From NCBI GenBank assembly GCA_028705565.1, contig JAQWDH010000005.1, positions 5,803-69,802 on the forward strand: DNA of 64,000 bases, in the 5' to 3' direction. Positions within the stretch are counted from its first letter, which is position 1, and each line of letters starts with the position of its first letter. Shown in pieces: positions 558 to 63,991 of the stretch. This stretch comes from Patescibacteria group bacterium (lineage in GTDB: Bacteria > Patescibacteriota > Patescibacteriia > Magasanikbacterales > GWA2-37-8). Position numbers and translations under genes: made by a program. Under the pieces are notes generated by a model that saw only the letters and a program-made list of their open reading frames with translations, did no database searches and was not told the DNA's origin.

Positions 558-679
558 TTGTCATTGCGATCCCGACTTAGTCGGGAGAAGCAATCCCACG
601 GTTCGGTAGTGCCAATAATATATTTCTAAAACAATGGGATTGTTTCGTCGTTCGTTTCACTCACTCCTCGCAATGACAA
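558..679. repeat. GC-rich palindromic MITE-like element (termini ttgtcattgcga...tcgcaatgacaa; inner gcaatccca...tgggattg)
   Basis: Inverted-repeat termini and inner inverted repeat read directly; same family as in-frame copies inside leuS. Confidence 0.75.
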
Positions 680-14555: not shown

Positions 14556-14732
14556 TTGTCATTCCGATCCGCCCGGGGCGGAGAGAAATCTCTGCCGGTT
14601 ATTGTAAACCGGACAGAGATCCCTCGTTTCACTCGGGATGACACTTAAGTTTTTGTCATTCCGACGAAGGAGGAATCCCTGTCGGTTATTGTAAACCGGA
14701 CAGAGTTCCCTCGTTTCACTCGGGATGACACT
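14556..14732. repeat. Two tandem copies of palindromic MITE-like element (gtcattccga ... tcgggatgac termini; inner ctctg-ccggtt...aaccgg-acagag)
   Basis: Copy 1 14556-14645, copy 2 14653-14732, about 85% identical; termini and inner palindromes read directly. Confidence 0.8.
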
Positions 14733-16289: not shown

Positions 16290-17219
16290 TCAGAAACCGC
16301 GGCAATCAAAAAATTTTTTTCTTATTGCTAAACGACAATCGTTCTCGTGCAACTTAATAATTCCATCGCCAAAAATCACACCTTTGTCGCCGGCTACGGC
16401 TTTTTCTTTCACGGAAAATTTTATTTTTGCCAACTGCCATTCCCGCGCTTGTTTTTCAATCATATTTCCATACGCCACTGCCCACATTTTTTCCCACGCT
16501 TTTTTCCAACAAACGGCAAACAGTGTATCGGACACCGAAACTCTGCTTGTAAAATTCGCTTCTTTAAAGATATACGGCAAAAATTTTTCCACCCAATTAT
16601 TGGCATTTAAAAATTTTTGATAATAATTCAGCGGGTCATACAACGGAATCATTCGCCTCGTCCAATAAGCGAAATGTATATCGTCTTCCTCAATTCTGCA
16701 ACGCGATAAATCCAAATTGTCTTCGTCAATAAAAAACGAAAGACAAATTTTGTCGGCTTGTTTGGAGCCGTAAGTCCTCATTCCGAAAACGCGCAAAATA
16801 AGATTCGCGAAAAATCTCACAATCCAAACTCGCCCACGCGCCGCGACTATCAAAAAATCTATATCACTTTCCTTTGTCGCCTCTTCGGCGCCGACTGAAT
16901 TGCAAACGAACACCGCTCGTAAAAAAGGTATGGAACGAATTTTTTTAATCGCGCGTTTGGCTATTTTAATTTTTATTTCGCTCTCAACCAAAGCCGCCCG
17001 CCTTTTCTCCGTGATTTCATTTCTTCCTGGCAAAAAATAATATCCGCATTTCGTTTCCACCGAATTTTCATTTTTAATTTTTTCCAATTCATTTAAAAAA
17101 TCTTCATAACTTACTCGCGGCGGACGCCACAAAAATTCAAAAAGTTCCTCTTTTGTTAAGGGATAATCAAAAAAATTGAAGTATGACAATGTTTGAATTA
17201 TGGAAGATTTTAAATCCAT
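16290..17219 (-). CDS. Nucleotidyltransferase-domain protein (pol-beta-like minimal NTase)
   Basis: 309 aa; VFVCNSVGAEEATKESDIDFLIVAAR resembles G[SG]x9-13DxD NTase motif. Confidence 0.45.
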   Translation of the reverse strand: MDLKSSIIQTLSYFNFFDYPLTKEELFEFLWRPPRVSYEDFLNELEKIKNENSVETKCGYYFLPGRNEITEKRRAALVESEIKIKIAKRAIKKIRSIPFLRAVFVCNSVGAEEATKESDIDFLIVAARGRVWIVRFFANLILRVFGMRTYGSKQADKICLSFFIDEDNLDLSRCRIEEDDIHFAYWTRRMIPLYDPLNYYQKFLNANNWVEKFLPYIFKEANFTSRVSVSDTLFAVCWKKAWEKMWAVAYGNMIEKQAREWQLAKIKFSVKEKAVAGDKGVIFGDGIIKLHENDCRLAIRKKFFDCRGF

Positions 17220-20733: not shown

Positions 20734-20862
20734 TTTTTTCTCCCTTTTTTAATCTTTTTTTTATATTTTAAAGGACCGCTTAATTTAAATTAAACCATAT
20801 TTAAAAAATTTGGTCAATCGCCTGTACAATACAGGACTGTCGCCGAATGTGTTTGTCATTCC

Positions 20863-20992
20863 GACCATAGCGAAGCGAAGTGGAGGAATCCCTCTTACGG
20901 TCAATGGACGACTGGCGACAGACGACGGACAGACAAAAGGGATTCCTCCACTCATTTCATTCGGTCGGAATGACAGAATGAAATGATTTTTG
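20863..20992. repeat. Palindromic MITE-like element (gtcattccgacc...ggtcggaatgac; inner gtggaggaatccc...gggattcctccac)
   Basis: Outer and inner inverted repeats read directly; ORF-track ORF 20785..21012 lies inside it. Confidence 0.8.
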
Positions 20993-22498: not shown

Positions 22499-23999
22499 AT
22501 AATAATTTGTTTACCACCCAAACAATAAACCCGTATATTGCGACCATTCCCCACCACGGAAGAAAAAAATCCATCGCGGATAAATTCCAACCGCCTATTT
22601 TTTCCGCTATCATTATAACATAATTCAAACCGATGCCCACAATCCAGGCGACAACTTGCCCGAAAGGAAACCAAACAAAACTCAAAACAACAGCCAAAAA
22701 ACCGAAAAACATCAAATAAGGAACAATCCACAAAATCAAAACATTGGCTACCGGAGCGATCGCGGATAATCGACCGAATTGAAATAAAATCAGAGGCAAG
22801 GTGGCGATAATGGCGGAAAAAGTCGGAGCTAAAATTTGTTTAAACAACGAGGATTTGTTTTTTCCACCTAAAAACGGACTTAGATAAACGATTCCGGCGG
22901 TTGCCAAAAAAGACAACTGAAATCCCGCGTCCCAAACAAGAACATACGGATTAAACAAAAGCATCAACGCCGCCGCCAAAGCCAAAACATATCCTACGCG
23001 CGATAATCTGCCTAAACGCTCGGCGATTAAAAGCACAACACCCATAATTCCGGCGCGCATAACCGAAGCTGAAGCGCCAGTAAAAATGACAAAAACGCAA
23101 ATACCAAAAATCGCAAGCCAAAAAGCTTGACGCCTGTATAATCCGGCTGAAACCAAAAAAATCATAAAAGCCGCGGCAATAATGTTTATATTATAACCTG
23201 ACACAGCGACAATATGCGAAATGCCGGCTCTATTAAAATTTTCTTTCAAATCATCGGGTATTCCGGAACGCGCGCCGTAAAGCAATCCTGATAAAAGTCC
23301 GCTGTCCGGTTCAGGCCATAATTTTTCTATCTGTTCGTTTATCCTAGTTTTTAACCGTAAAATATTTTTTAAAACAAAATTTCCCTCGTCCGCGCCGATT
23401 TTTTCAATTTTCGCGTTTACGCATATTGACCAAATTCCGTCTTTCGCCAAATATCTGTCGTATCTGAAATTTCCATCAGGACTGTTTCGCGGACTTTTCA
23501 AATCGCACGATATTTTTAACTTATCTCCATATTCGTAGCGTGGATACAACAGGCCTTCAACTAACGCGCGTCCGGAAACTTTTTTATTGGAAGACGCTTC
23601 TAAATCATAAATAAATTCTGTTTTAATAATATATTTAACGCTGTCAGGACGGATGTCCGGCTCGCCCACCACCCAACCTATGATTTTTCCTCTCTCTCCG
23701 TTGTAATATAAAATGTTTTTCGCGTCTCCGGATGGAACGCTAATAAAAAAACGAATAGCTCCCAAAACAAAAAATAAAACGCAAAAAAACAAAAATCTGC
23801 TGTTTATATTTTTCCAAAAAATCGCAATCGCGAAAACCAAACACCAAAAAACAACAAATAAATAAAATAAAATATTTTTTTCAATGTCCGAATAAGAAAA
23901 AATGCCGACTCCTGAAATAAAACAAAAACAGAGCATAAGAAATGCCCCGCTTTTTGAATTGATAATTTTTTCAACAACATTCTCTTTCCGAAATGTCAT
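22485..23999 (-). CDS. comEC: ComEC/Rec2 DNA-uptake channel, membrane domains only (DUF4131 + competence domain)
   Basis: 504 aa polytopic; OB-fold-like N-region and competence-domain helices; MBL domain encoded separately at 21032..21877. Confidence 0.65.
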   Translation of the reverse strand: MTFRKENVVEKIINSKSGAFLMLCFCFISGVGIFSYSDIEKNILFYLFVVFWCLVFAIAIFWKNINSRFLFFCVLFFVLGAIRFFISVPSGDAKNILYYNGERGKIIGWVVGEPDIRPDSVKYIIKTEFIYDLEASSNKKVSGRALVEGLLYPRYEYGDKLKISCDLKSPRNSPDGNFRYDRYLAKDGIWSICVNAKIEKIGADEGNFVLKNILRLKTRINEQIEKLWPEPDSGLLSGLLYGARSGIPDDLKENFNRAGISHIVAVSGYNINIIAAAFMIFLVSAGLYRRQAFWLAIFGICVFVIFTGASASVMRAGIMGVVLLIAERLGRLSRVGYVLALAAALMLLFNPYVLVWDAGFQLSFLATAGIVYLSPFLGGKNKSSLFKQILAPTFSAIIATLPLILFQFGRLSAIAPVANVLILWIVPYLMFFGFLAVVLSFVWFPFGQVVAWIVGIGLNYVIMIAEKIGGWNLSAMDFFLPWWGMVAIYGFIVWVVNKLLYVKN

Positions 24000-26900
24000 A
24001 CCACAATGCTAACCAATTTTCCTTTTACATAAATTATTTTTTTCGGCTCTTTGCCTTCCAGCCATTTTTGAATTTTTTCACTCGCGAGCGCTTGTTTTTT
24101 AGCTTCTTCTTCGCTTATCTCCGCTGGCGCGATTAAACTATCGCGAACCTTGCCGTTCACCTGCACAACCAAAATAATTTCGTTCTCCATTGCCGATTTG
24201 GCGTCATATTCAGGCCATTTTTCAAAAATTACGCTTTTTTTATGCCCCAACAAACTCCAGATTTCTTCGCAAAAATGCGGGGCGAACGGCGATAATATCT
24301 TAATAAATAAAGAATAATGTTCAATTGATATTGTTTCTTGTTTTGATAATTCATTTGCTAACTCCATCATTTTCGCGATAGCCGTGTTAAAGCGCATCGC
24401 TTCAATGTCTTCGGTGACTTTTTTTATTGTTTGATGAAGCACAGATGTTATTTTGTCATTGCGAGGATTCGCCCAGGGCGAAGATGAAGCAATCCCGTCA
24501 TTTTTTTGTTTAGTTTTGCTTTTAACGACACGGTCAAAAAGAAACCACACTTTCTCCAAAAATCTTTTAGTTCCAACCAATCCGTTGGTATTCCAAGCGC
24601 ACGGCTGACTGAAGGGACCCATAAACATTTCATAAACGCGCATCGCGTCAGCTCCAAATTCCTTTACCACATCGTCCGGGTTTATCACGTTTCCCCAACG
24701 TTTGCTCATCTTGCGACCGTCTTCGGCTAAAATCAATCCGACGCTTTGTAATTTTTCAAACGGCTCTTCTTTATTAACAACGCCGATATCATATAAAAAT
24801 TTATGCCAAAAACGAGCGTAAATAAGATGACGCGTGGCGTGCTCGGCTCCACCGACATAAAAATCAACCGGAAGCCACCAATCAAACGCTTTACTGTAAT
24901 TGGAAATTGGAAAATTGCCTGCCTGCCGGTAGGCAGGGAAATTGGAAATTTTTTTCATGATATACGCGAGATAATACCAACACGACCCAGCCCATTGGGG
25001 CATCGTGTTGGTTTCTCGTTTCGCCGGTCCTCCGCATTTAGGACATTTTACGTTCACCCATTTTTGAATTCCGGCAAGCGGCGACTCGCCCGTGCCTGTC
25101 GGAACATAAGATTTCACATTAGGAAGCTTTATCGGCAATTTATCTTCCGGTATCGCCATCCAACCCGGATTTAATCGTTCACCATTGGAAATTGTCTCCT
25201 TTCGGGAGATATCCTGTGGGAGAAAATTTTCCATTGATTTTTTACACGCTGGGCAAAAAATCAATGGTATTGGTTCTCCCCAATAACGTTGTCTGGAAAA
25301 AACCCAATCGCGCAATTTATAATTTATTTTCCGTTCCCCATATTTTTTGTCTTCCAACCATTTGATTATTTTTTCTTTCGCCTCTTTGGTTGATAAACCG
25401 TCCAAAAATGTTGAATTAACCGACAGTCCATCGCCCGTATAAGCGCTATTTTTTACGAATTTTTCAAAAAGATAATGATGCAGAGGGTCTTTTACTTTTT
25501 CATCCGCTTCTTTTTCAGTTATCCATTCCAATTTGAATTTGTCTTTTTCCTTATCTGTTAAATTTTGCCCTCCATTTTTTTCGTCAGACAATTCAAAAAA
25601 CAAACCGACTGCTTCTATTTCACGATTTACATTTTTAGAGGCGGCAAAATAATGATGATGAATTTTTTCCGATTCGGCTATTAATTTTACATTTTTATAT
25701 CCTGTTTCTTCTTCAATTTCCCTTTGAGCGCATTTAACCGCGTCCTCTCCGTCTTTTAATCCTCCGCCGATAAATAAATTTCCTCCAAATTTTTCGCCCC
25801 AATTCAAAGAAAGAAGTTTATTGTTTTTTGGGTCGCGCACCAATGCCACGATACTGCGACGAAATTCCTCATTGTCTTTTTTCTGTCCGGTAATCGGCTC
25901 TACCACGGTTTTAATCGGCAATCCGTATTTTTTCGCGAATTCCATATCTCTGTCGTCATGCGCCGGCACGGCCATAACAGCTCCGGCGCCATAACCTCCG
26001 ATTACATAATCGGCGACAAAAATAGGCAATTCCTCGCCGTTGACCGGATTTATCGCTTTAATACCTTTAATTTCAACGCCGGTTTTGTCTTTTTGCAGTT
26101 CGCTTCGTTCCAAAACCGTTTTGTGTTTTGCTTTTTCAACATACGCGGCTATGTCAGCGAAATTTTCAATTTTCCTGCCTACCGGTTTACATACCGTAGG
26201 TATGTTTACATACCGTAGGTATGCAGGGAGACAATTTTCAATTAAAGAATGCTCAGGGGCGACAACAACATAAGTCGCGCCGAATAAAGTATCCGGACGA
26301 GTGGTAAAAACCTCCAAAATGTCATTGCGAGGAATTCCCGAAGGGGATGACGAAGCAATCCCACTGTTACCATTATAATTGTTATAAGATTGCTTCGCTT
26401 CACTCGCAATGACAAAACGCACTGTCGCTCCTTCGCTTCTGCCAATCCAATTTTTTTGCATTTCCTTAATCGCTTCAGGCCAATTTTTCAATTTATCCAA
26501 ATCATTTAACAGCCGTTCGGCGTAATCGGTAATTTTTAACACCCATTGTCTCATTGGCTTCTGCTCAACAGCGGAACCGCAACGCTCGCATTTTCCATCC
26601 TCCAAATCCTCATTTGCCAAACCTGTCTGGCACGACGGACACCAATTTATCGGAGCGTATGATTCATAAGCCAAACCTTTTTTAAACATTTGCAAAAACA
26701 TCCATTGCGTCCATTTATAATATTCCGGATCCGTTGTATTTATTTCCCTGCTCCAATCATAAGTAAAACCCAAAAGTCCAAGCTGTTTTTTGAATATCTT
26801 GATATTTTTTTCAGTCGCTACGCGTGGATGAACTTTATTTTTAATGGCGTAATTTTCCGCCGGCAAACCGAAAGCGTCCCATCCCATCGGATGCAAAACA

Positions 26901-27115
26901 TTAAACCCCTGCATTTGTTTCATTCTGGCGATGACATCGGTGGCGATATAACCTTTCGGATGCCCGACATGCAAACCGGCTCCGGAAGGATACGGAAACA
27001 TATCCAAAATATAATACTTCGGCTTGTCAAAAGTTTTTTTGGTTTGAAAAAGTTTTTTCTTTTCCCAATATCTCTGCCACTTTTTCTCAATTTTTTCCGG
27101 ATTATAATTTTTCAT
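23996..27115 (-). CDS. leuS: Leucyl-tRNA synthetase with NUDIX-domain insertion and two in-frame palindromic-element insertions
   Basis: HVGHP, NWIGRSEGATVRF, AHDDRDMEFAKKYGLPI, KLRDWVFSRQRYWGEPIP, VGGAEHATRHLIYARFW, KMSKRWGN motifs; 1039 aa vs typical about 820-860. Confidence 0.9.
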   Translation of the reverse strand: MKNYNPEKIEKKWQRYWEKKKLFQTKKTFDKPKYYILDMFPYPSGAGLHVGHPKGYIATDVIARMKQMQGFNVLHPMGWDAFGLPAENYAIKNKVHPRVATEKNIKIFKKQLGLLGFTYDWSREINTTDPEYYKWTQWMFLQMFKKGLAYESYAPINWCPSCQTGLANEDLEDGKCERCGSAVEQKPMRQWVLKITDYAERLLNDLDKLKNWPEAIKEMQKNWIGRSEGATVRFVIASEAKQSYNNYNGNSGIASSSPSGIPRNDILEVFTTRPDTLFGATYVVVAPEHSLIENCLPAYLRYVNIPTVCKPVGRKIENFADIAAYVEKAKHKTVLERSELQKDKTGVEIKGIKAINPVNGEELPIFVADYVIGGYGAGAVMAVPAHDDRDMEFAKKYGLPIKTVVEPITGQKKDNEEFRRSIVALVRDPKNNKLLSLNWGEKFGGNLFIGGGLKDGEDAVKCAQREIEEETGYKNVKLIAESEKIHHHYFAASKNVNREIEAVGLFFELSDEKNGGQNLTDKEKDKFKLEWITEKEADEKVKDPLHHYLFEKFVKNSAYTGDGLSVNSTFLDGLSTKEAKEKIIKWLEDKKYGERKINYKLRDWVFSRQRYWGEPIPLIFCPACKKSMENFLPQDISRKETISNGERLNPGWMAIPEDKLPIKLPNVKSYVPTGTGESPLAGIQKWVNVKCPKCGGPAKRETNTMPQWAGSCWYYLAYIMKKISNFPAYRQAGNFPISNYSKAFDWWLPVDFYVGGAEHATRHLIYARFWHKFLYDIGVVNKEEPFEKLQSVGLILAEDGRKMSKRWGNVINPDDVVKEFGADAMRVYEMFMGPFSQPCAWNTNGLVGTKRFLEKVWFLFDRVVKSKTKQKNDGIASSSPWANPRNDKITSVLHQTIKKVTEDIEAMRFNTAIAKMMELANELSKQETISIEHYSLFIKILSPFAPHFCEEIWSLLGHKKSVIFEKWPEYDAKSAMENEIILVVQVNGKVRDSLIAPAEISEEEAKKQALASEKIQKWLEGKEPKKIIYVKGKLVSIVV
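24455..24496. repeat. Palindromic element inserted in-frame in leuS, 42 bp, encodes GIASSSPWANPRND
   Basis: gtcattgcgagg-attcgcccagggcgaa-gatgaagcaatccc; length divisible by 3; ORF continuous through it. Confidence 0.75.
25440..25860 (-). other. NUDIX hydrolase domain embedded in LeuRS between the editing domain and the KLRDW segment
   Basis: Nudix box GGLKDGEDAVKCAQREIEEETGY fits Gx5Ex7REUxEExGU, at about 25698-25769; preceded by RSIVALVRDPKNNKLLSL. Confidence 0.7.
26321..26413. repeat. Palindromic element inserted in-frame in leuS, 93 bp, encodes ...YNGNSGIASSSPSGIPRNDI
   Basis: gtcattgcgag...cgaagcaatc / gattgcttcg...ctcgcaatgac inverted repeats; 31 codons; sits just after the NWIGRSEGATVRF start of the CP1 domain. 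Confidence 0.8.
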
Positions 27116-29493: not shown

Positions 29494-29519
29494 TTGTCAT
29501 TCCTCGGGATGACAATTTT
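29494..29519. repeat. Short palindrome ttgtcattcctcgggatgacaa: minimal copy of the GTCATYSCGA element family, possible terminator
   Basis: Read directly between trxA and infB. Confidence 0.6.
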
Positions 29520-35380: not shown

Positions 35381-35455
35381 TGGTAGCCCCAACGGGAATC
35401 GAACCCGTATTACCACATTGAAAGCGTGGTGTCCTAGCCATTAGACGATGGGGCC
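35381..35455 (-). tRNA. tRNA-Glu (anticodon UUC), CCA encoded
   Basis: Cloverleaf folded by hand: acceptor GGCCCCA/TGGGGCT, anticodon stem CCACG/TGTGG, loop CTTTCAA, T-loop GGTTCGATTCC. Confidence 0.85.
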
Positions 35456-35557: not shown

Positions 35558-35631
35558 GTCAGGGTAGCTCAGATGGTTAGAGCACGGGATTCATAACCCC
35601 GAGGTCGGGAGTTCGATTCTCCCCCCTGACA
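35558..35631 (+). tRNA. tRNA-Met (anticodon CAU; elongator or Ile-lysidine type, 1-72 paired)
   Basis: Acceptor GTCAGGG/CCCTGAC, D-arm GCTCAGATGGTTAGAGC, anticodon loop TTCATAA, T-arm GGGAGTTCGATTCTCCC. Confidence 0.85.
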
Positions 35632-50635: not shown

Positions 50636-50745
50636 TTGTCATTGCGCTTCGCTCGTAATGACAATATTGTCCATTATCCGTTAATGTCACAAGACAGGGA
50701 TCCCTCTCCGCCCTTGGCGGATCGGGATGACAGCATCGTCCGTAA
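50636..50745. repeat. Two partial palindromic element copies (ttgtcattgcg...taatgacaa; inverted left end of the 14556-family element)
   Basis: Reverse complement of 50716-50745 equals gctgtcatcccgatccgccaagggcggaga, matching the start of copy 14556. Confidence 0.65.
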
Positions 50746-61957: not shown

Positions 61958-63991
61958 TCATTCCAAATGCGCGGTTTCCAATTCTTTCATCTTTTTCGCC
62001 AAAATCGGATATTTTTCCGCTTCAGGCGCCAAAAGCCGCGCCGCTTCTTTCGCTTTCTTTATTATACCAATATCCGTAAGTTTTGCCAGCCGCAGGTTCA
62101 TCATCCCGCTTTGCTCGGTTCCATACACTTCTCCAGGCCCGCGCATCTCCAAATCCTTGTCAGCCAATTTAAACCCGTTATTTTCTTTTTCAAAATATCG
62201 CAAACGCTCCGTTGCTTTCACCGCGTCCGATTCAGTAAAAAGCAAACAATAAGATTGATGCTCGGCGCGTCCGACCCGTCCGCGAAATTGATGCAATTGC
62301 GCCAAACCGAATCTGTCGGCGTTTTCAATCATCATTACCGAGGCGTTGGATATATCAACGCCGACCTCAACTACGGAAGTTGAAACGAGTATATCAATTT
62401 CCTTGTTTTTAAATTTTGCCATCGTATCTTCTTTTTCTTTCGCCTTTTGTTTGCCATGCAAATATCCGATTTTTAAATCCGTAAAAATTTTTTTGGACAA
62501 TTTTTCATATTCCGCCATCACTGATTTTTTTTCTTCCGCGCCAACGGCTCGCGGCTCCAAATTCAAATTGCAAGTTTCTGATTCGGAATCGCAAAAAATT
62601 AGCGGACAAATAACAAATGCCTGCCTGCCTGCTTTTATTTGTTCGCGGATGAATTGATACGCTTTTTCACGTTTTACCGGCTCCACCAAACGAGTCAAAA
62701 CTTTTTTCCTGCCAAGAGGCAATTCGTCAATGATTGAAACATCCAAATCGCCATAAATCGTGAGCGCCAAAGAACGCGGAATCGGTGTCGCGGTCATGCT
62801 TAAAAAATGTATTCCTTTCTTATTTGATGAAGCGCCGCCTTTTTCTTTTATTATTTTCCTTTGTTCAACTCCAAACCTGTGCTGTTCGTCAACAACCACC
62901 AAACCCAATTTTTCAAATTCAACTTTCTCACTCAAAAGCGCGTGCGTTCCGATAATAATGCTAACTTTTTTGTTTCTAATTTCTTTTAATAATACATTCT
63001 TTGATATTTTGATTTTGTCATTGATTGGAAATTGTAAATTGGAAATTTGACATTGCGAGCGTGTTAATAAACATAAACGCGCTTTATCTCCCAGCAATCC
63101 AACCATTGTATTGTAATGCTGTGTCGCCAAAATTTCAGTCGGCGCCATTATCGCCGCCTGATATCCGTTCAAAAAAGCGCTATATGCCGCCATCGCCGCC
63201 ACCACTGTTTTACCCGAACCGACATCTCCTGAAAGCAAACGATTCATTGGTTTGCCCTTCGTGATGTCTTGTAAAATTTCCCACGCGGATATTTTTTGCG
63301 ATTTGGTAAGCGTAAAAGGCAACGCTTTCACGAAATCTTGAATTTCTTTTTCTTTAAATTTCAAAATCGGAGCTGATTCAAAATTTCTTTTCATTCTCGC
63401 CGTTTCCGCCTTAAACTGCAATAAAAACCATTCATTGAATTTAAGCCGCTCAACGCTTTGCTTTAAATCATTGTCATCCTCTGGAAAATGTATTCCTCGC
63501 AACGCTTCGGAAATCGGAGCTAAGTCAAACTTTTCCAAAATAATTTCCGGTATCCATTCGGAAATATTTTGAGACAAACCGACAATTTGACTCTCAAGAA
63601 AACGAGTCTGTTTTTGAGTAAGCCCTGCTGTCAAAGGATAAATCGGAACAAGCCGCGCGGTATGCGTGGTCGCGTCTTTATTGGCTTTTTCGTAAACAGG
63701 ACTTACAAATTGCAACCCGAGCATGTCCGCCTGTGTTTTTCCTGATAAAAAAACAACATCGCCAATTTTCAAAATTTTAGTCAAAAACGGCTGATTAAAC
63801 CATACGACGCGAACGCTTCCGCTTTCGTCCGAAATCAGCGCCTCAGTGATGATTTTTCTTTTCTTAAAACTTCGCTTGTTGGCTATAAGTTCAACTCGCC
63901 CGCGAATTGTGATTGTTTCCCCGTCTTTTAGTTCGCTAATTGGAACCAAACGGCGAAAATCTTCATAACGGAATGGAAAAAAATACAACAA
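61958..63991 (-). CDS. recG: ATP-dependent DNA helicase RecG
   Basis: 677 aa; wedge domain, GDVGSGKT, DEQHRFG, QLHQFRGRVGR. Confidence 0.9.
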   Translation of the reverse strand: MLYFFPFRYEDFRRLVPISELKDGETITIRGRVELIANKRSFKKRKIITEALISDESGSVRVVWFNQPFLTKILKIGDVVFLSGKTQADMLGLQFVSPVYEKANKDATTHTARLVPIYPLTAGLTQKQTRFLESQIVGLSQNISEWIPEIILEKFDLAPISEALRGIHFPEDDNDLKQSVERLKFNEWFLLQFKAETARMKRNFESAPILKFKEKEIQDFVKALPFTLTKSQKISAWEILQDITKGKPMNRLLSGDVGSGKTVVAAMAAYSAFLNGYQAAIMAPTEILATQHYNTMVGLLGDKARLCLLTRSQCQISNLQFPINDKIKISKNVLLKEIRNKKVSIIIGTHALLSEKVEFEKLGLVVVDEQHRFGVEQRKIIKEKGGASSNKKGIHFLSMTATPIPRSLALTIYGDLDVSIIDELPLGRKKVLTRLVEPVKREKAYQFIREQIKAGRQAFVICPLIFCDSESETCNLNLEPRAVGAEEKKSVMAEYEKLSKKIFTDLKIGYLHGKQKAKEKEDTMAKFKNKEIDILVSTSVVEVGVDISNASVMMIENADRFGLAQLHQFRGRVGRAEHQSYCLLFTESDAVKATERLRYFEKENNGFKLADKDLEMRGPGEVYGTEQSGMMNLRLAKLTDIGIIKKAKEAARLLAPEAEKYPILAKKMKELETAHLE

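Follow-up and report, generated by a model that had tools for sequence, protein, structure and literature searches.

The leucyl-tRNA synthetase gene (leuS) of an ultra-small Patescibacteria group bacterium raises the question of what two palindromic repeats are doing inside the reading frame of a large essential enzyme, and how they came to be there. The gene lies in a stretch of 64,000 nucleotides (contig JAQWDH010000005.1, positions 5,803 to 69,802), hereafter the window, whose features are collected in Table 1. [quoted passage not shown] Our analysis makes it probable that the leuS elements are copies of widespread non-coding repeats, the CGTC/TGTC-tagged repetitive extragenic palindromes (REPs), which have been recurrently inserted and are translated as tolerated loops.

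The 93-bp element (site 1) and the 42-bp element (site 2) were confirmed to lie within leuS without breaking its frame, the open reading frame (ORF) being intact. The site-1 copy is translated as VIASEAKQSYNNYNGNSGIASSSPSGIPRND (residues 236-266), in the stretch that joins the catalytic core to the editing domain, and the site-2 copy as GIASSSPWANPRND (residues 874-887), between the helices 843-872 and 887-905. Both peptides contain the motif GIASSSP-x3-PRND, and the + strand halves at 24455-24496 and 26320-26362 are 81% identical and, as had been claimed, in the same orientation. The proposed placement of the inserts also held: site 1 comes directly after NWIGRSEGATVRF, early in the stretch that Pfam matches to the editing domain (221-414), and site 2 precedes RFNTAIA, one helix (887-905), or about 20 residues, upstream of it. 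The DNA of the site-1 dimer folds at -27.5 kcal/mol (z = -7.5), and the copies at the two sites carry CCC tails, except for the VIASEAKQS half of the site-1 dimer, whose tail is CTT. An intein or intron reading was rejected, the inserts being 14-31 aa long, multiples of three, stop-free and without a splicing domain.

These copies share their plan with other elements of the window. A half-element comprises an unpaired [C/T]GTC tag, a stem starting with AT, an inner hairpin or loop that varies, and a short tail of pyrimidine type (CCA, CCC or CTC), and the full unit is formed by two half-elements placed head-to-head, usually over 70-120 bp. The dimers of the window measure 85-122 bp and, when full, fold as long hairpins with z values of -6.4 to -7.7 relative to shuffled sequences; their stem variants are ATTGC/GCAAT, ATTCC/GGAAT and ATCCC/GGGAT. 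The box GTCATTGCGAG, with at most one mismatch, occurred 7 times in the window against 0.78 expected, a count that none of 100 shuffles reached, and a relaxed search of the 64 kb recovered eight REP loci, six of them intergenic. The intergenic copies that the earlier note had placed at 558-679 and 50636-50670 are real (the latter locus runs to about 50733), and the recurrence of the element elsewhere in the genome was borne out by further copies that had been missed, at 14558-14642, 14655-14729, 20855-20974 and 29496-29513. In every bona fide copy of the window, and in 14 of its 16 pattern matches, GTCAT is preceded by a T; the other two matches are not elements. Hairpins picked up in the window by a loose detector at 16635, 28838 and 34461 were dropped on inspection as false positives. 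Other than two divergent tRNA genes, at 35384-35455 (-) and 35558-35631 (+), which are the sole Rfam matches in the window, no Rfam family reached the gathering score over it, and none reached E <= 1 for two repeat copies.

This anatomy is that of the CGTC-tagged REPs, families CGTC-1 to -4, described by Di Nocera, De Gregorio and Rocco (2013, BMC Genomics 14:522; PMC3733652) and defined by a CGTC/TGTC (or CCTC) tag, a stem beginning with A-T, a CCA-like tail and an arrangement mostly as head-to-head dimers with spacers of about 20-100 bp. The canonical stem has 8-9 bp and the loop 4-5 nt, other loop lengths being found in Bradyrhizobium CGTC-1 (PMC3733652). According to the same paper, these REPs occur mainly in Alphaproteobacteria, in 5 phyla in all, are mainly intergenic with occasional in-frame copies of about 20-30 aa, apparently lack a dedicated transposase, and include the Rickettsia RPE-6 and the Neisseria dRS3 (both CGTC-1) as well as RPE-4 (CGTC-4). 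Its supplement lists CGTC-1 copies in Coxiella burnetii genes and in-frame copies in the GlyRS-beta and IleRS of Alphaproteobacteria, with the peptides VVPAKAGTS...IPASAGMT. We tested the family definition on 288 hairpin-confirmed copies in 129 sequences. The base before GTCAT was C in 143 and T in 127 of them, and the tail was CCA in 115, CTC in 65 and CCC in 40. The two arms of the stem covaried, ATTGC being paired with GCAAT in 76%, ATTCC with GGAAT in 40% and ATCCC with GGGAT in 26%, while mismatched combinations made up at most 10% (16% in low-count rows); ATTCCCGC/GCGGGAAT was a further matched pair. Of the 129 paired elements, 102 measure 70-129 bp. Two related loci of the candidate phyla radiation (CPR; L004 and L007) contain the canonical form, with 8 bp in the stem and 4 nt in the loop (GTCATTCCCGCGAAAGCGGGAATCCA), and the leuS copies are a long-loop variant that combines an outer stem of 5 bp with an internal loop and an inner hairpin. 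By these results, the leuS elements fit the CGTC/TGTC-tagged REP superfamily and are not a new kind of element.

The superfamily proved to be far more widespread than described, its near-identical boxes occurring in Patescibacteria and in no fewer than ten further phyla. When one genome per species was scanned for GTCATTGCGAG-N(4-24)-GAAGCAATC (20 specified bases), at least 120 loci were returned, and the matches listed came from more than 10 phyla, their hosts including Alpha- and Gammaproteobacteria, Chloroflexota, Bacteroidota, Cyanobacteria, Planctomycetota, Desulfobacterota, Zixibacteria, Firmicutes, Campylobacterota, Melainabacteria and Patescibacteria, among others; the exact half-element pattern was found as a dimer in a Rickettsiales metagenome-assembled genome (MAG; L079). 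In other phyla, in-frame copies were detected in UvrA (a dimer), in GuaA/GMP synthase (a dimer) and in ClpB, and the repeat also lies inside a radical-SAM ORF (a dimer) and, less certainly, an HrpB ORF (a half-element matched by the loose detector); the five loci are L118, L095, L098, L010 and L037. A 45-aa concatenated peptide query for other host proteins gave no candidates. The VIASEAKQS, PRND, VIPAKAGIQ and AGMT peptides present in many hypothetical and housekeeping proteins would have the same repeat origin. In the literature searched, no paper linked CGTC-type repeats with Patescibacteria, and the DNA boxes and peptides used as search strings gave only primer coincidences.

The LeuRS of the window, identical to NCBI protein MDD4476997.1 from a Patescibacteria MAG, matched the Thermus thermophilus LeuRS structure 1H3N with E = 1.7e-206. 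Its HIGH-type HVGH (residues 49-52), KMSKS-type KMSKR (802-806) and editing-domain TTRPDT motifs are intact, which argues that the enzyme is probably active. Pfam recognized the class I catalytic domain, the editing domain (221-414) and the anticodon-binding domain (888-999). In an AlphaFold2 model built on a 60-sequence alignment, with a mean predicted local distance difference test score (pLDDT) of 84.5 and a predicted TM-score (pTM) of 0.79, pLDDT fell below 50 only at residues 240-244, 246-262, 298-309, 727-739 and 876-882. The segments 240-244, 246-262 and 876-882 are the two REP inserts, and 298-309 and 727-739 are inserts of a second repeat family dealt with below. In the model, site 1 lies where the chain enters the editing domain and extends the hairpin that joins the strands 226-237 and 266-271. 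When the protein was aligned to 1H3N, site 1, the two second-family inserts and a NUDIX domain all appeared as insertions, and the site-1 loop is also short in Escherichia coli LeuRS. The low pLDDT and the site-1 insertion relative to T. thermophilus support the surface-loop location that had been suggested for both inserts, and the repeat inserts are predicted to be disordered surface loops.

The earlier note had expected the inserts to be lineage-specific indels. This was not borne out, as many other Patescibacteria LeuRS carry such repeats at these two sites. Among the 120 best Patescibacteria homologues (about 45-70% identical; 67% for the closest one outside the 90% cluster), a conservative REP peptide signature revealed REP-derived peptides at site 1 in 19 sequences, from about 15 clades, and at site 2 in 8 sequences, from 8 clades, of a neighbor-joining tree whose branches have no support values, which makes any count of gains approximate. 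One or two sequences (P0114 and possibly P0105) use a third site, after residue 297, and nowhere else in the LeuRS of these homologues was the signature found. The carriers are interleaved with LeuRS that keep the native loop F-KIKDSEE-ILK-VFTT, and have themselves largely lost it. At the DNA level, eight relatives show the same boxes (e.g., GTCATTGCGAGCGAAGCGAAGCAATC in the window and in L001, L002, L004 and L005), with LeuRS proteins that are only 55-70% identical. The sub-families differ by genome (VIASEAKQS; VIARSEATKQS; VIPTKSAQGG...LRSARND; VIPAKAGIQ...FRGND), and each leuS copy matches the sub-family of the intergenic copies of its own genome. The left junctions of the site-1 inserts are offset by 0-2 codons, and the two sites display a decay series from dimer to half-element to remnant (VIARSEERATRQSS, VIPSRAEES, VISNEGEKS).

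Since deletion of a repeat cannot regenerate the native loop, repeated independent gain at two permissive linkers is a better reading of these sequences than one lineage-specific indel. That the linkers are generally permissive is implied by the unrelated low-complexity repeats (ISNFKFQI, KSQIQNSK...) and the whole domains, of 134-219 aa, that both sites hold in other lineages. The presence of the same peptide at the same positions in other LeuRS, which the earlier note had regarded as counting against mobile elements, was indeed found, but it does not argue against mobility, because the carriers are scattered among native-loop lineages and carry different sub-families. The two inter-domain linkers serve as repeated landing or survival sites across the radiation, and they amount to an experiment run by nature on which parts of a large essential enzyme can accommodate 14-30 additional residues and on the way in which new protein loops arise from repeats.

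We propose that copies of the repeat would land mostly between genes and occasionally inside one, where a copy would survive only if its length keeps the frame, the frame is free of stops and the extra peptide is tolerated at that position. LeuRS would offer two such places, the hairpin after the strand leading into the editing domain and the loop that precedes the anticodon-binding domain's first helix. At these places the repeat would be translated in the VIA...RND frame as a hydrophilic disordered loop, and the enzyme would stay functional. Independent colonization of these two linkers would have recurred in many Patescibacteria lineages, on each occasion by the sub-family that the genome harbors, and after insertion the copies and the surrounding native loop residues would erode by deletion, from dimer to half-element to remnant. 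Several observations do not sit easily with this proposal. All clear inserts at sites 1 and 2 (about 26 of 26) start in the V-I-x phase, even though all three phases are open at that end and the others are used elsewhere (CHSR... at the third site of P0114; RHPREGG... in a published copy), a constancy not obviously predicted by purely random insertion followed by a filter. REP inserts occupy only three LeuRS sites, though other positions accept insertions of at least 7 aa. In the L001/L005 pair (87% aa identity), third-codon identity was 0.885 in the site-1 element (26 codons) against 0.689 elsewhere, a hint that the DNA itself may be constrained or subject to gene conversion, and neutrality may be less than strict. 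Finally, no mobilizing enzyme was found in the window or in the leuS loci of the relatives (L001-L008), and no filled/empty polymorphism was at hand to prove recent movement directly.

A rival reading is targeted insertion, in which the repeats, or a nuclease acting on them, would recognize a DNA sequence, GTCATT/AATGAC microhomology or a local hairpin at the two leuS positions, so that recurrence and phase would express site preference, as with homing endonuclease genes, and not selection after insertion. The about 26 independent-looking cases sharing the V-I-x phase at both sites, the confinement to 2-3 sites despite other indel-tolerant positions, and the association of the same hairpins with a GIY-YIG nuclease (see below), a fold used by homing endonucleases, are consistent with it; so is the fact that the native loop is replaced and not just interrupted, the ND of the element standing in for the native D/N-K at site 2, and its VI for the native x-I at site 1. 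We nevertheless consider targeting unlikely: the flanks of 140 dimers show neither conservation beyond the tag base nor target duplication, the left site-1 junctions vary, unrelated repeats and whole domains occupy the same sites, as expected for permissive linkers, and erosion of unconstrained native residues would make junctions converge. Even less probable, in our view, is a single ancient insertion per site in an early Patescibacteria LeuRS, inherited vertically with repeated loss and with gene conversion by resident repeats. The interleaving of carriers with lineages that keep F-x-I-K-D/N-S-E-E-x-L-x, a loop that simple repeat deletion cannot regenerate, speaks against it, as do the short site-1 loops of E. 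coli and T. thermophilus and the differing junction offsets, within the limits of a tree on which the gains can be counted only approximately. Such a history would, however, account for the same sites and phase everywhere and for the resemblance of each leuS copy to the intergenic copies of its own genome, as conversion would give, and L001 and L005 demonstrably inherited theirs.

We also give very little credence to a domesticated function, in which the leuS hairpins would pause ribosomes at domain boundaries to allow folding, an RNase site would tune the mRNA, or the loops would make contact with tRNA or with a partner. In favor of this, the two sites coincide exactly with domain boundaries, the predicted hairpins are strong, the inherited element of the L001/L005 pair exceeds the rest of the gene in third-position conservation, and the element boxes are near-identical between genomes whose LeuRS share only 55-70% identity. 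Yet in the majority of LeuRS from the same clade the inserts are absent and the native loop is retained, the copies decay to halves and remnants, and the peptides are predicted to be disordered; moreover, the conservation of the boxes belongs to the repeat family and not to leuS, because they are equally conserved in intergenic copies and across phyla. Recurrent insertion of resident REPs followed by tolerance at permissive linkers is the reading that we retain.

As to the way in which these repeats move, direct repeats of 2-8 nt that would indicate a target-site duplication were no commoner around 140 dimers than in shifted controls, and no flank motif was found in them beyond the tag base. 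A DDE-type MITE is disfavored because of this lack of target-site duplication. Of the MITE-like character attributed to the elements, the palindromic, multi-copy nature and the inverted ends stood, but the classical DDE MITE did not, and 'REP dimer' is the better term. No RAYT gene was present in the ORFs scanned of the 64-kb window, no Y1 (IS200-like) RAYT occurred among the ORFs clustered near elements in the 129 sequences, and no gene family recurred near the repeats in these sequences besides the leuS neighborhood. Several candidates were discarded. ValRS (L035) seemed to be a recurrent neighbor but had been clustered through class-I homology only, the repeat lying upstream of the gene and not within it; inverted pairs 170-2560 bp apart, considered as autonomous elements, were almost all two separate repeats flanking ordinary genes; and a Mutator-type transposase between the halves in L055 was a single case, judged coincidental.

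In a Planctomycetota locus (L071), a 96-aa GIY-YIG ORF (PF01541, 5.9e-18) lies exactly between two inverted half-elements. We compared 80 metagenomic loci encoding relatives of this protein, chosen by protein motifs only. A tagged hairpin was located at most 200 nt from the GIY-YIG ORF in 71 of them, and on both sides in 45; hairpin density was 6.0 per kb beside the gene and 0.42 per kb beyond 250 nt, a 14-fold local enrichment. A strict simple bracket was found in 21 of 67 evaluable loci, with a median unit length of 397 bp. In a Chryseobacterium-like contig (L206), the left end GTCATTGCGAGGAGCGAAGCGACGAAGCAATCTC, upstream of the GIY-YIG ORF, has 34 nt identical to the leuS site-1 half-element of the CPR loci L002 and L006. 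The GIY-YIG gene is thus associated with the tagged hairpins, which makes its nuclease the best candidate for the enzyme that would mobilize the repeats. Because neither the window nor the leuS loci of its relatives (L001-L008) hold a GIY-YIG homologue, the copies of the window would be non-autonomous or relics. It is possible, although we rate it at somewhat less than an even chance, that this nuclease is the missing enzyme that generates, maintains or moves CGTC REPs throughout bacteria, including those of the RPE-4/-6 type and dRS3, with the 42-120 bp copies being ORF-less derivatives of the unit of about 400 bp. If so, the constant phase and the repeated use of the LeuRS linkers could reflect structure- or microhomology-guided insertion by the nuclease. 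No NCBIfam name was found for this GIY-YIG subfamily, and no paper in the literature searched linked GIY-YIG proteins with REPs; the question, standing since 2013, of what mobilizes CGTC REPs becomes directly testable with this candidate.

It is also worth mentioning that the REP/GIY-YIG/REP unit of L071 (4960-5551) is placed at the 5' end of pheT and flanked by a duplication of roughly 130 bp of the pheT start (MNVSYNWLKELVEFDL... twice), with one intact copy of the gene left. This duplication could be either an unusually long target duplication or a repair footprint. The 34-nt half-element GTCATTGCGAGGAGCGAAGCGACGAAGCAATCTC is far more conserved between CPR and the Chryseobacterium-like contig than any neighboring gene.

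Table 1. Repeat elements and related features of the window (coordinates of the window; z, fold relative to shuffled sequences)
Feature	Position	Strand	Remarks
leuS, leucyl-tRNA synthetase, 1039 aa	23996..27115	-	intact ORF; Pfam tRNA-synt_1, tRNA-synt_1_2, Anticodon_1, NUDIX
Site-1 insert, 93-bp head-to-head dimer of TGTC-tagged hairpins	26321..26413		12-nt perfect terminal inverted repeats TGTCATTGCGAG/CTCGCAATGACA
Site-2 insert, 42-bp single half-element	24455..24496		+ strand GTCATTGCGAGGATTCGCCCAGGGCGAAGATGAAGCAATCCC; tag, stem ATTGC/GCAAT, inner hairpin, CCC tail
Intergenic full dimer, same sub-family as the leuS copies	560..677		z = -6.4; CCC tails
Intergenic dimer 14558-14642 and adjoining 14655-14729	14558..14729 (pair)		ATTCC/ATCCC stem variants; z = -6.7
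Intergenic dimer, ATTCC/GGAAT stem variant	20855..20974		z = -7.7
Minimal intergenic element GTCATTCCTCGGGATGAC	29496..29513		single short palindrome, GTC/GAC ends on both sides; T at 29495, A at 29514
Intergenic copy: minimal element 50638-50662 and inverted half-element ending at 50731	50638..50731		
NUDIX domain (aa 418-544), inserted in the LeuRS editing-domain region	25484..25864	-	PF00293, 3.1e-13
Second family, in frame in leuS: SNFPAYRQAGNFPISN, aa about 722-738	24902..24952		core CCTGCCTGCCGGTAGGCAGG flanked by GGAAATTGGAAA
Inverted second-family copy within the leuS frame: PAYLRYVNIPTVCKPVGRKIENF, aa about 296-318	26162..26240		pLDDT < 50 at 298-309
Third second-family-like palindrome, in frame in leuS: NFLPQDISRKETISN, aa 629-643	25187..25231		palindrome; indel relative to P0241

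leuS also carries three in-frame copies of a second palindromic family (Table 1), with peptides such as NFPAYRQAGNFPISN; these, like the NUDIX domain, had escaped the earlier note. The insert at 24902-24952, with pLDDT below 50 at residues 727-739, is unique to the lineage of the window among the 120 LeuRS homologues, and the inverted copy contains a perfect 19-bp tandem duplication (GTTTACATACCGTAGGTAT twice) at 26185-26222. A LeuRS 98% identical to that of the window (P0241) has all four other repeat inserts unchanged, and the sole indel between the two proteins is at residues 629-643, where the peptide is wholly different (NFLPQDISRKETISN in the window, ISNFPTSPAGRQFSISN in P0241), which argues that the peptide at this position is not under selection. 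The 20-nt palindrome of this family is also intergenic in CPR loci (L003, 6356-6375; L007, 2396-2415 and 15197-15216), once within a REP half-element. Elsewhere in the window, RecG (recG, 61958-63991, -) has about 12 extra residues (QCQISNLQFPIND) compared with the Thermotoga maritima RecG 1GM5, encoded at about 63020-63110; their DNA comprises a degenerate CTCGCAATGTC...AATGAC end and GGAAATTG repeats, and may be another decayed in-frame repeat.

The NUDIX domain of the LeuRS is common to most of the close homologues listed and is confidently folded in the AlphaFold model (pLDDT about 90); it follows KYGLPIKTVVEP, and its Nudix box is intact (GGGLKDGEDAVKCAQREIEEETGY). Alpha/beta-hydrolase, Ham1 or DUF559-type domains are present in the LeuRS of other relatives. 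A Pseudomonadota MAG encodes a LeuRS (L063, 1767-4322) in which an in-frame VIPAVVSGEPASFPLQNAGGQALKTAGMT repeat comes directly after KYDLPIKQV, the position where CPR LeuRS enzymes hold the NUDIX domain. The roughly 100 extra residues of the window LeuRS can be read as translated selfish DNA plus a NUDIX domain, and the enzyme need not count as unusual. The gene order gdh-leuS-comEC is kept in 5 of the 8 related loci fetched (L001, L003, L005, L007 and L008).

Comparison with known systems places these elements among several kinds of short mobile or repeated DNA. Like the Rickettsia palindromic elements, they are in-frame palindromes in essential genes, translated as extra surface peptides. 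The best-known of those, RPE-1, has about 100-150 bp and is restricted to Rickettsia, whereas the leuS copies have 42 and 93 bp, belong to a free-standing CPR lineage and come from a repeat that is mostly intergenic (six of the eight window loci). The resemblance that the earlier note had drawn is closer than an analogy, as the leuS repeats fit the published superfamily that holds RPE-4 and RPE-6; this common membership follows from the published assignment, and the likeness rests on that definition (PMC3733652). Neisseria dRS3 and the small Coxiella QMITE2 copies, which are REP-like (PMC5896051), share short palindromes of the ATTCCC...GGGAAT type, the canonical variant being that of the CPR loci L004 and L007, but they have been described as repeats between genes or as sites of phage integration and are not known for the repeated in-frame use of one protein site.

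The GIY-YIG unit has parallels of its own. A classical MITE has a longer autonomous relative that shares its ends; here a unit of about 400 bp with identical ends, of putative mobility, carries a GIY-YIG ORF and not a DDE transposase. As with GIY-YIG homing endonuclease genes, a small nuclease gene sits in a mobile-looking unit inside or beside a housekeeping gene (pheT in L071); in contrast to them, it has no intron, intein or DNA-binding extension, being a predicted nuclease only, REP hairpins form the boundaries of the unit, and its short derivative is retained in the mRNA and translated. The closest parallel in layout is the REPIN/RAYT system, in which two inverted hairpins also form a non-autonomous unit without target duplication and the presumed enzyme gene is bracketed by hairpins (the 'REPtron'); such a hairpin-bracketed layout is what led others to link RAYT transposases with GTAG REPs. 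The two differ in the tag, which is [C/T]GTC and not GTAG, and in the bracketed gene, which encodes a GIY-YIG nuclease of roughly 100 aa and not an IS200-like tyrosine (Y1 HUH) transposase.

The system to which the leuS elements belong is that of the CGTC-tagged REPs, with which they share the tag, the A-T stem start, the CCA-like tail, the head-to-head dimers and the mainly intergenic location with occasional in-frame copies; the peptides published for GlyRS-beta and IleRS are those found in the LeuRS P0081 and P0087. They differ in the 5-bp outer stem with an inner hairpin of the leuS copies, instead of an 8-9 bp stem with a 4-5 nt loop, in the Patescibacteria host, in the range of more than 10 phyla and in the reuse of two LeuRS sites, which is absent from the 2013 paper. 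The claim of an undescribed behavior stood in part: in-frame copies in tRNA synthetases had already been published (PMC3733652), whereas the host phylum, the wider spread of near-identical boxes, the repeated colonization of two LeuRS linkers and the candidate enzyme are new here.

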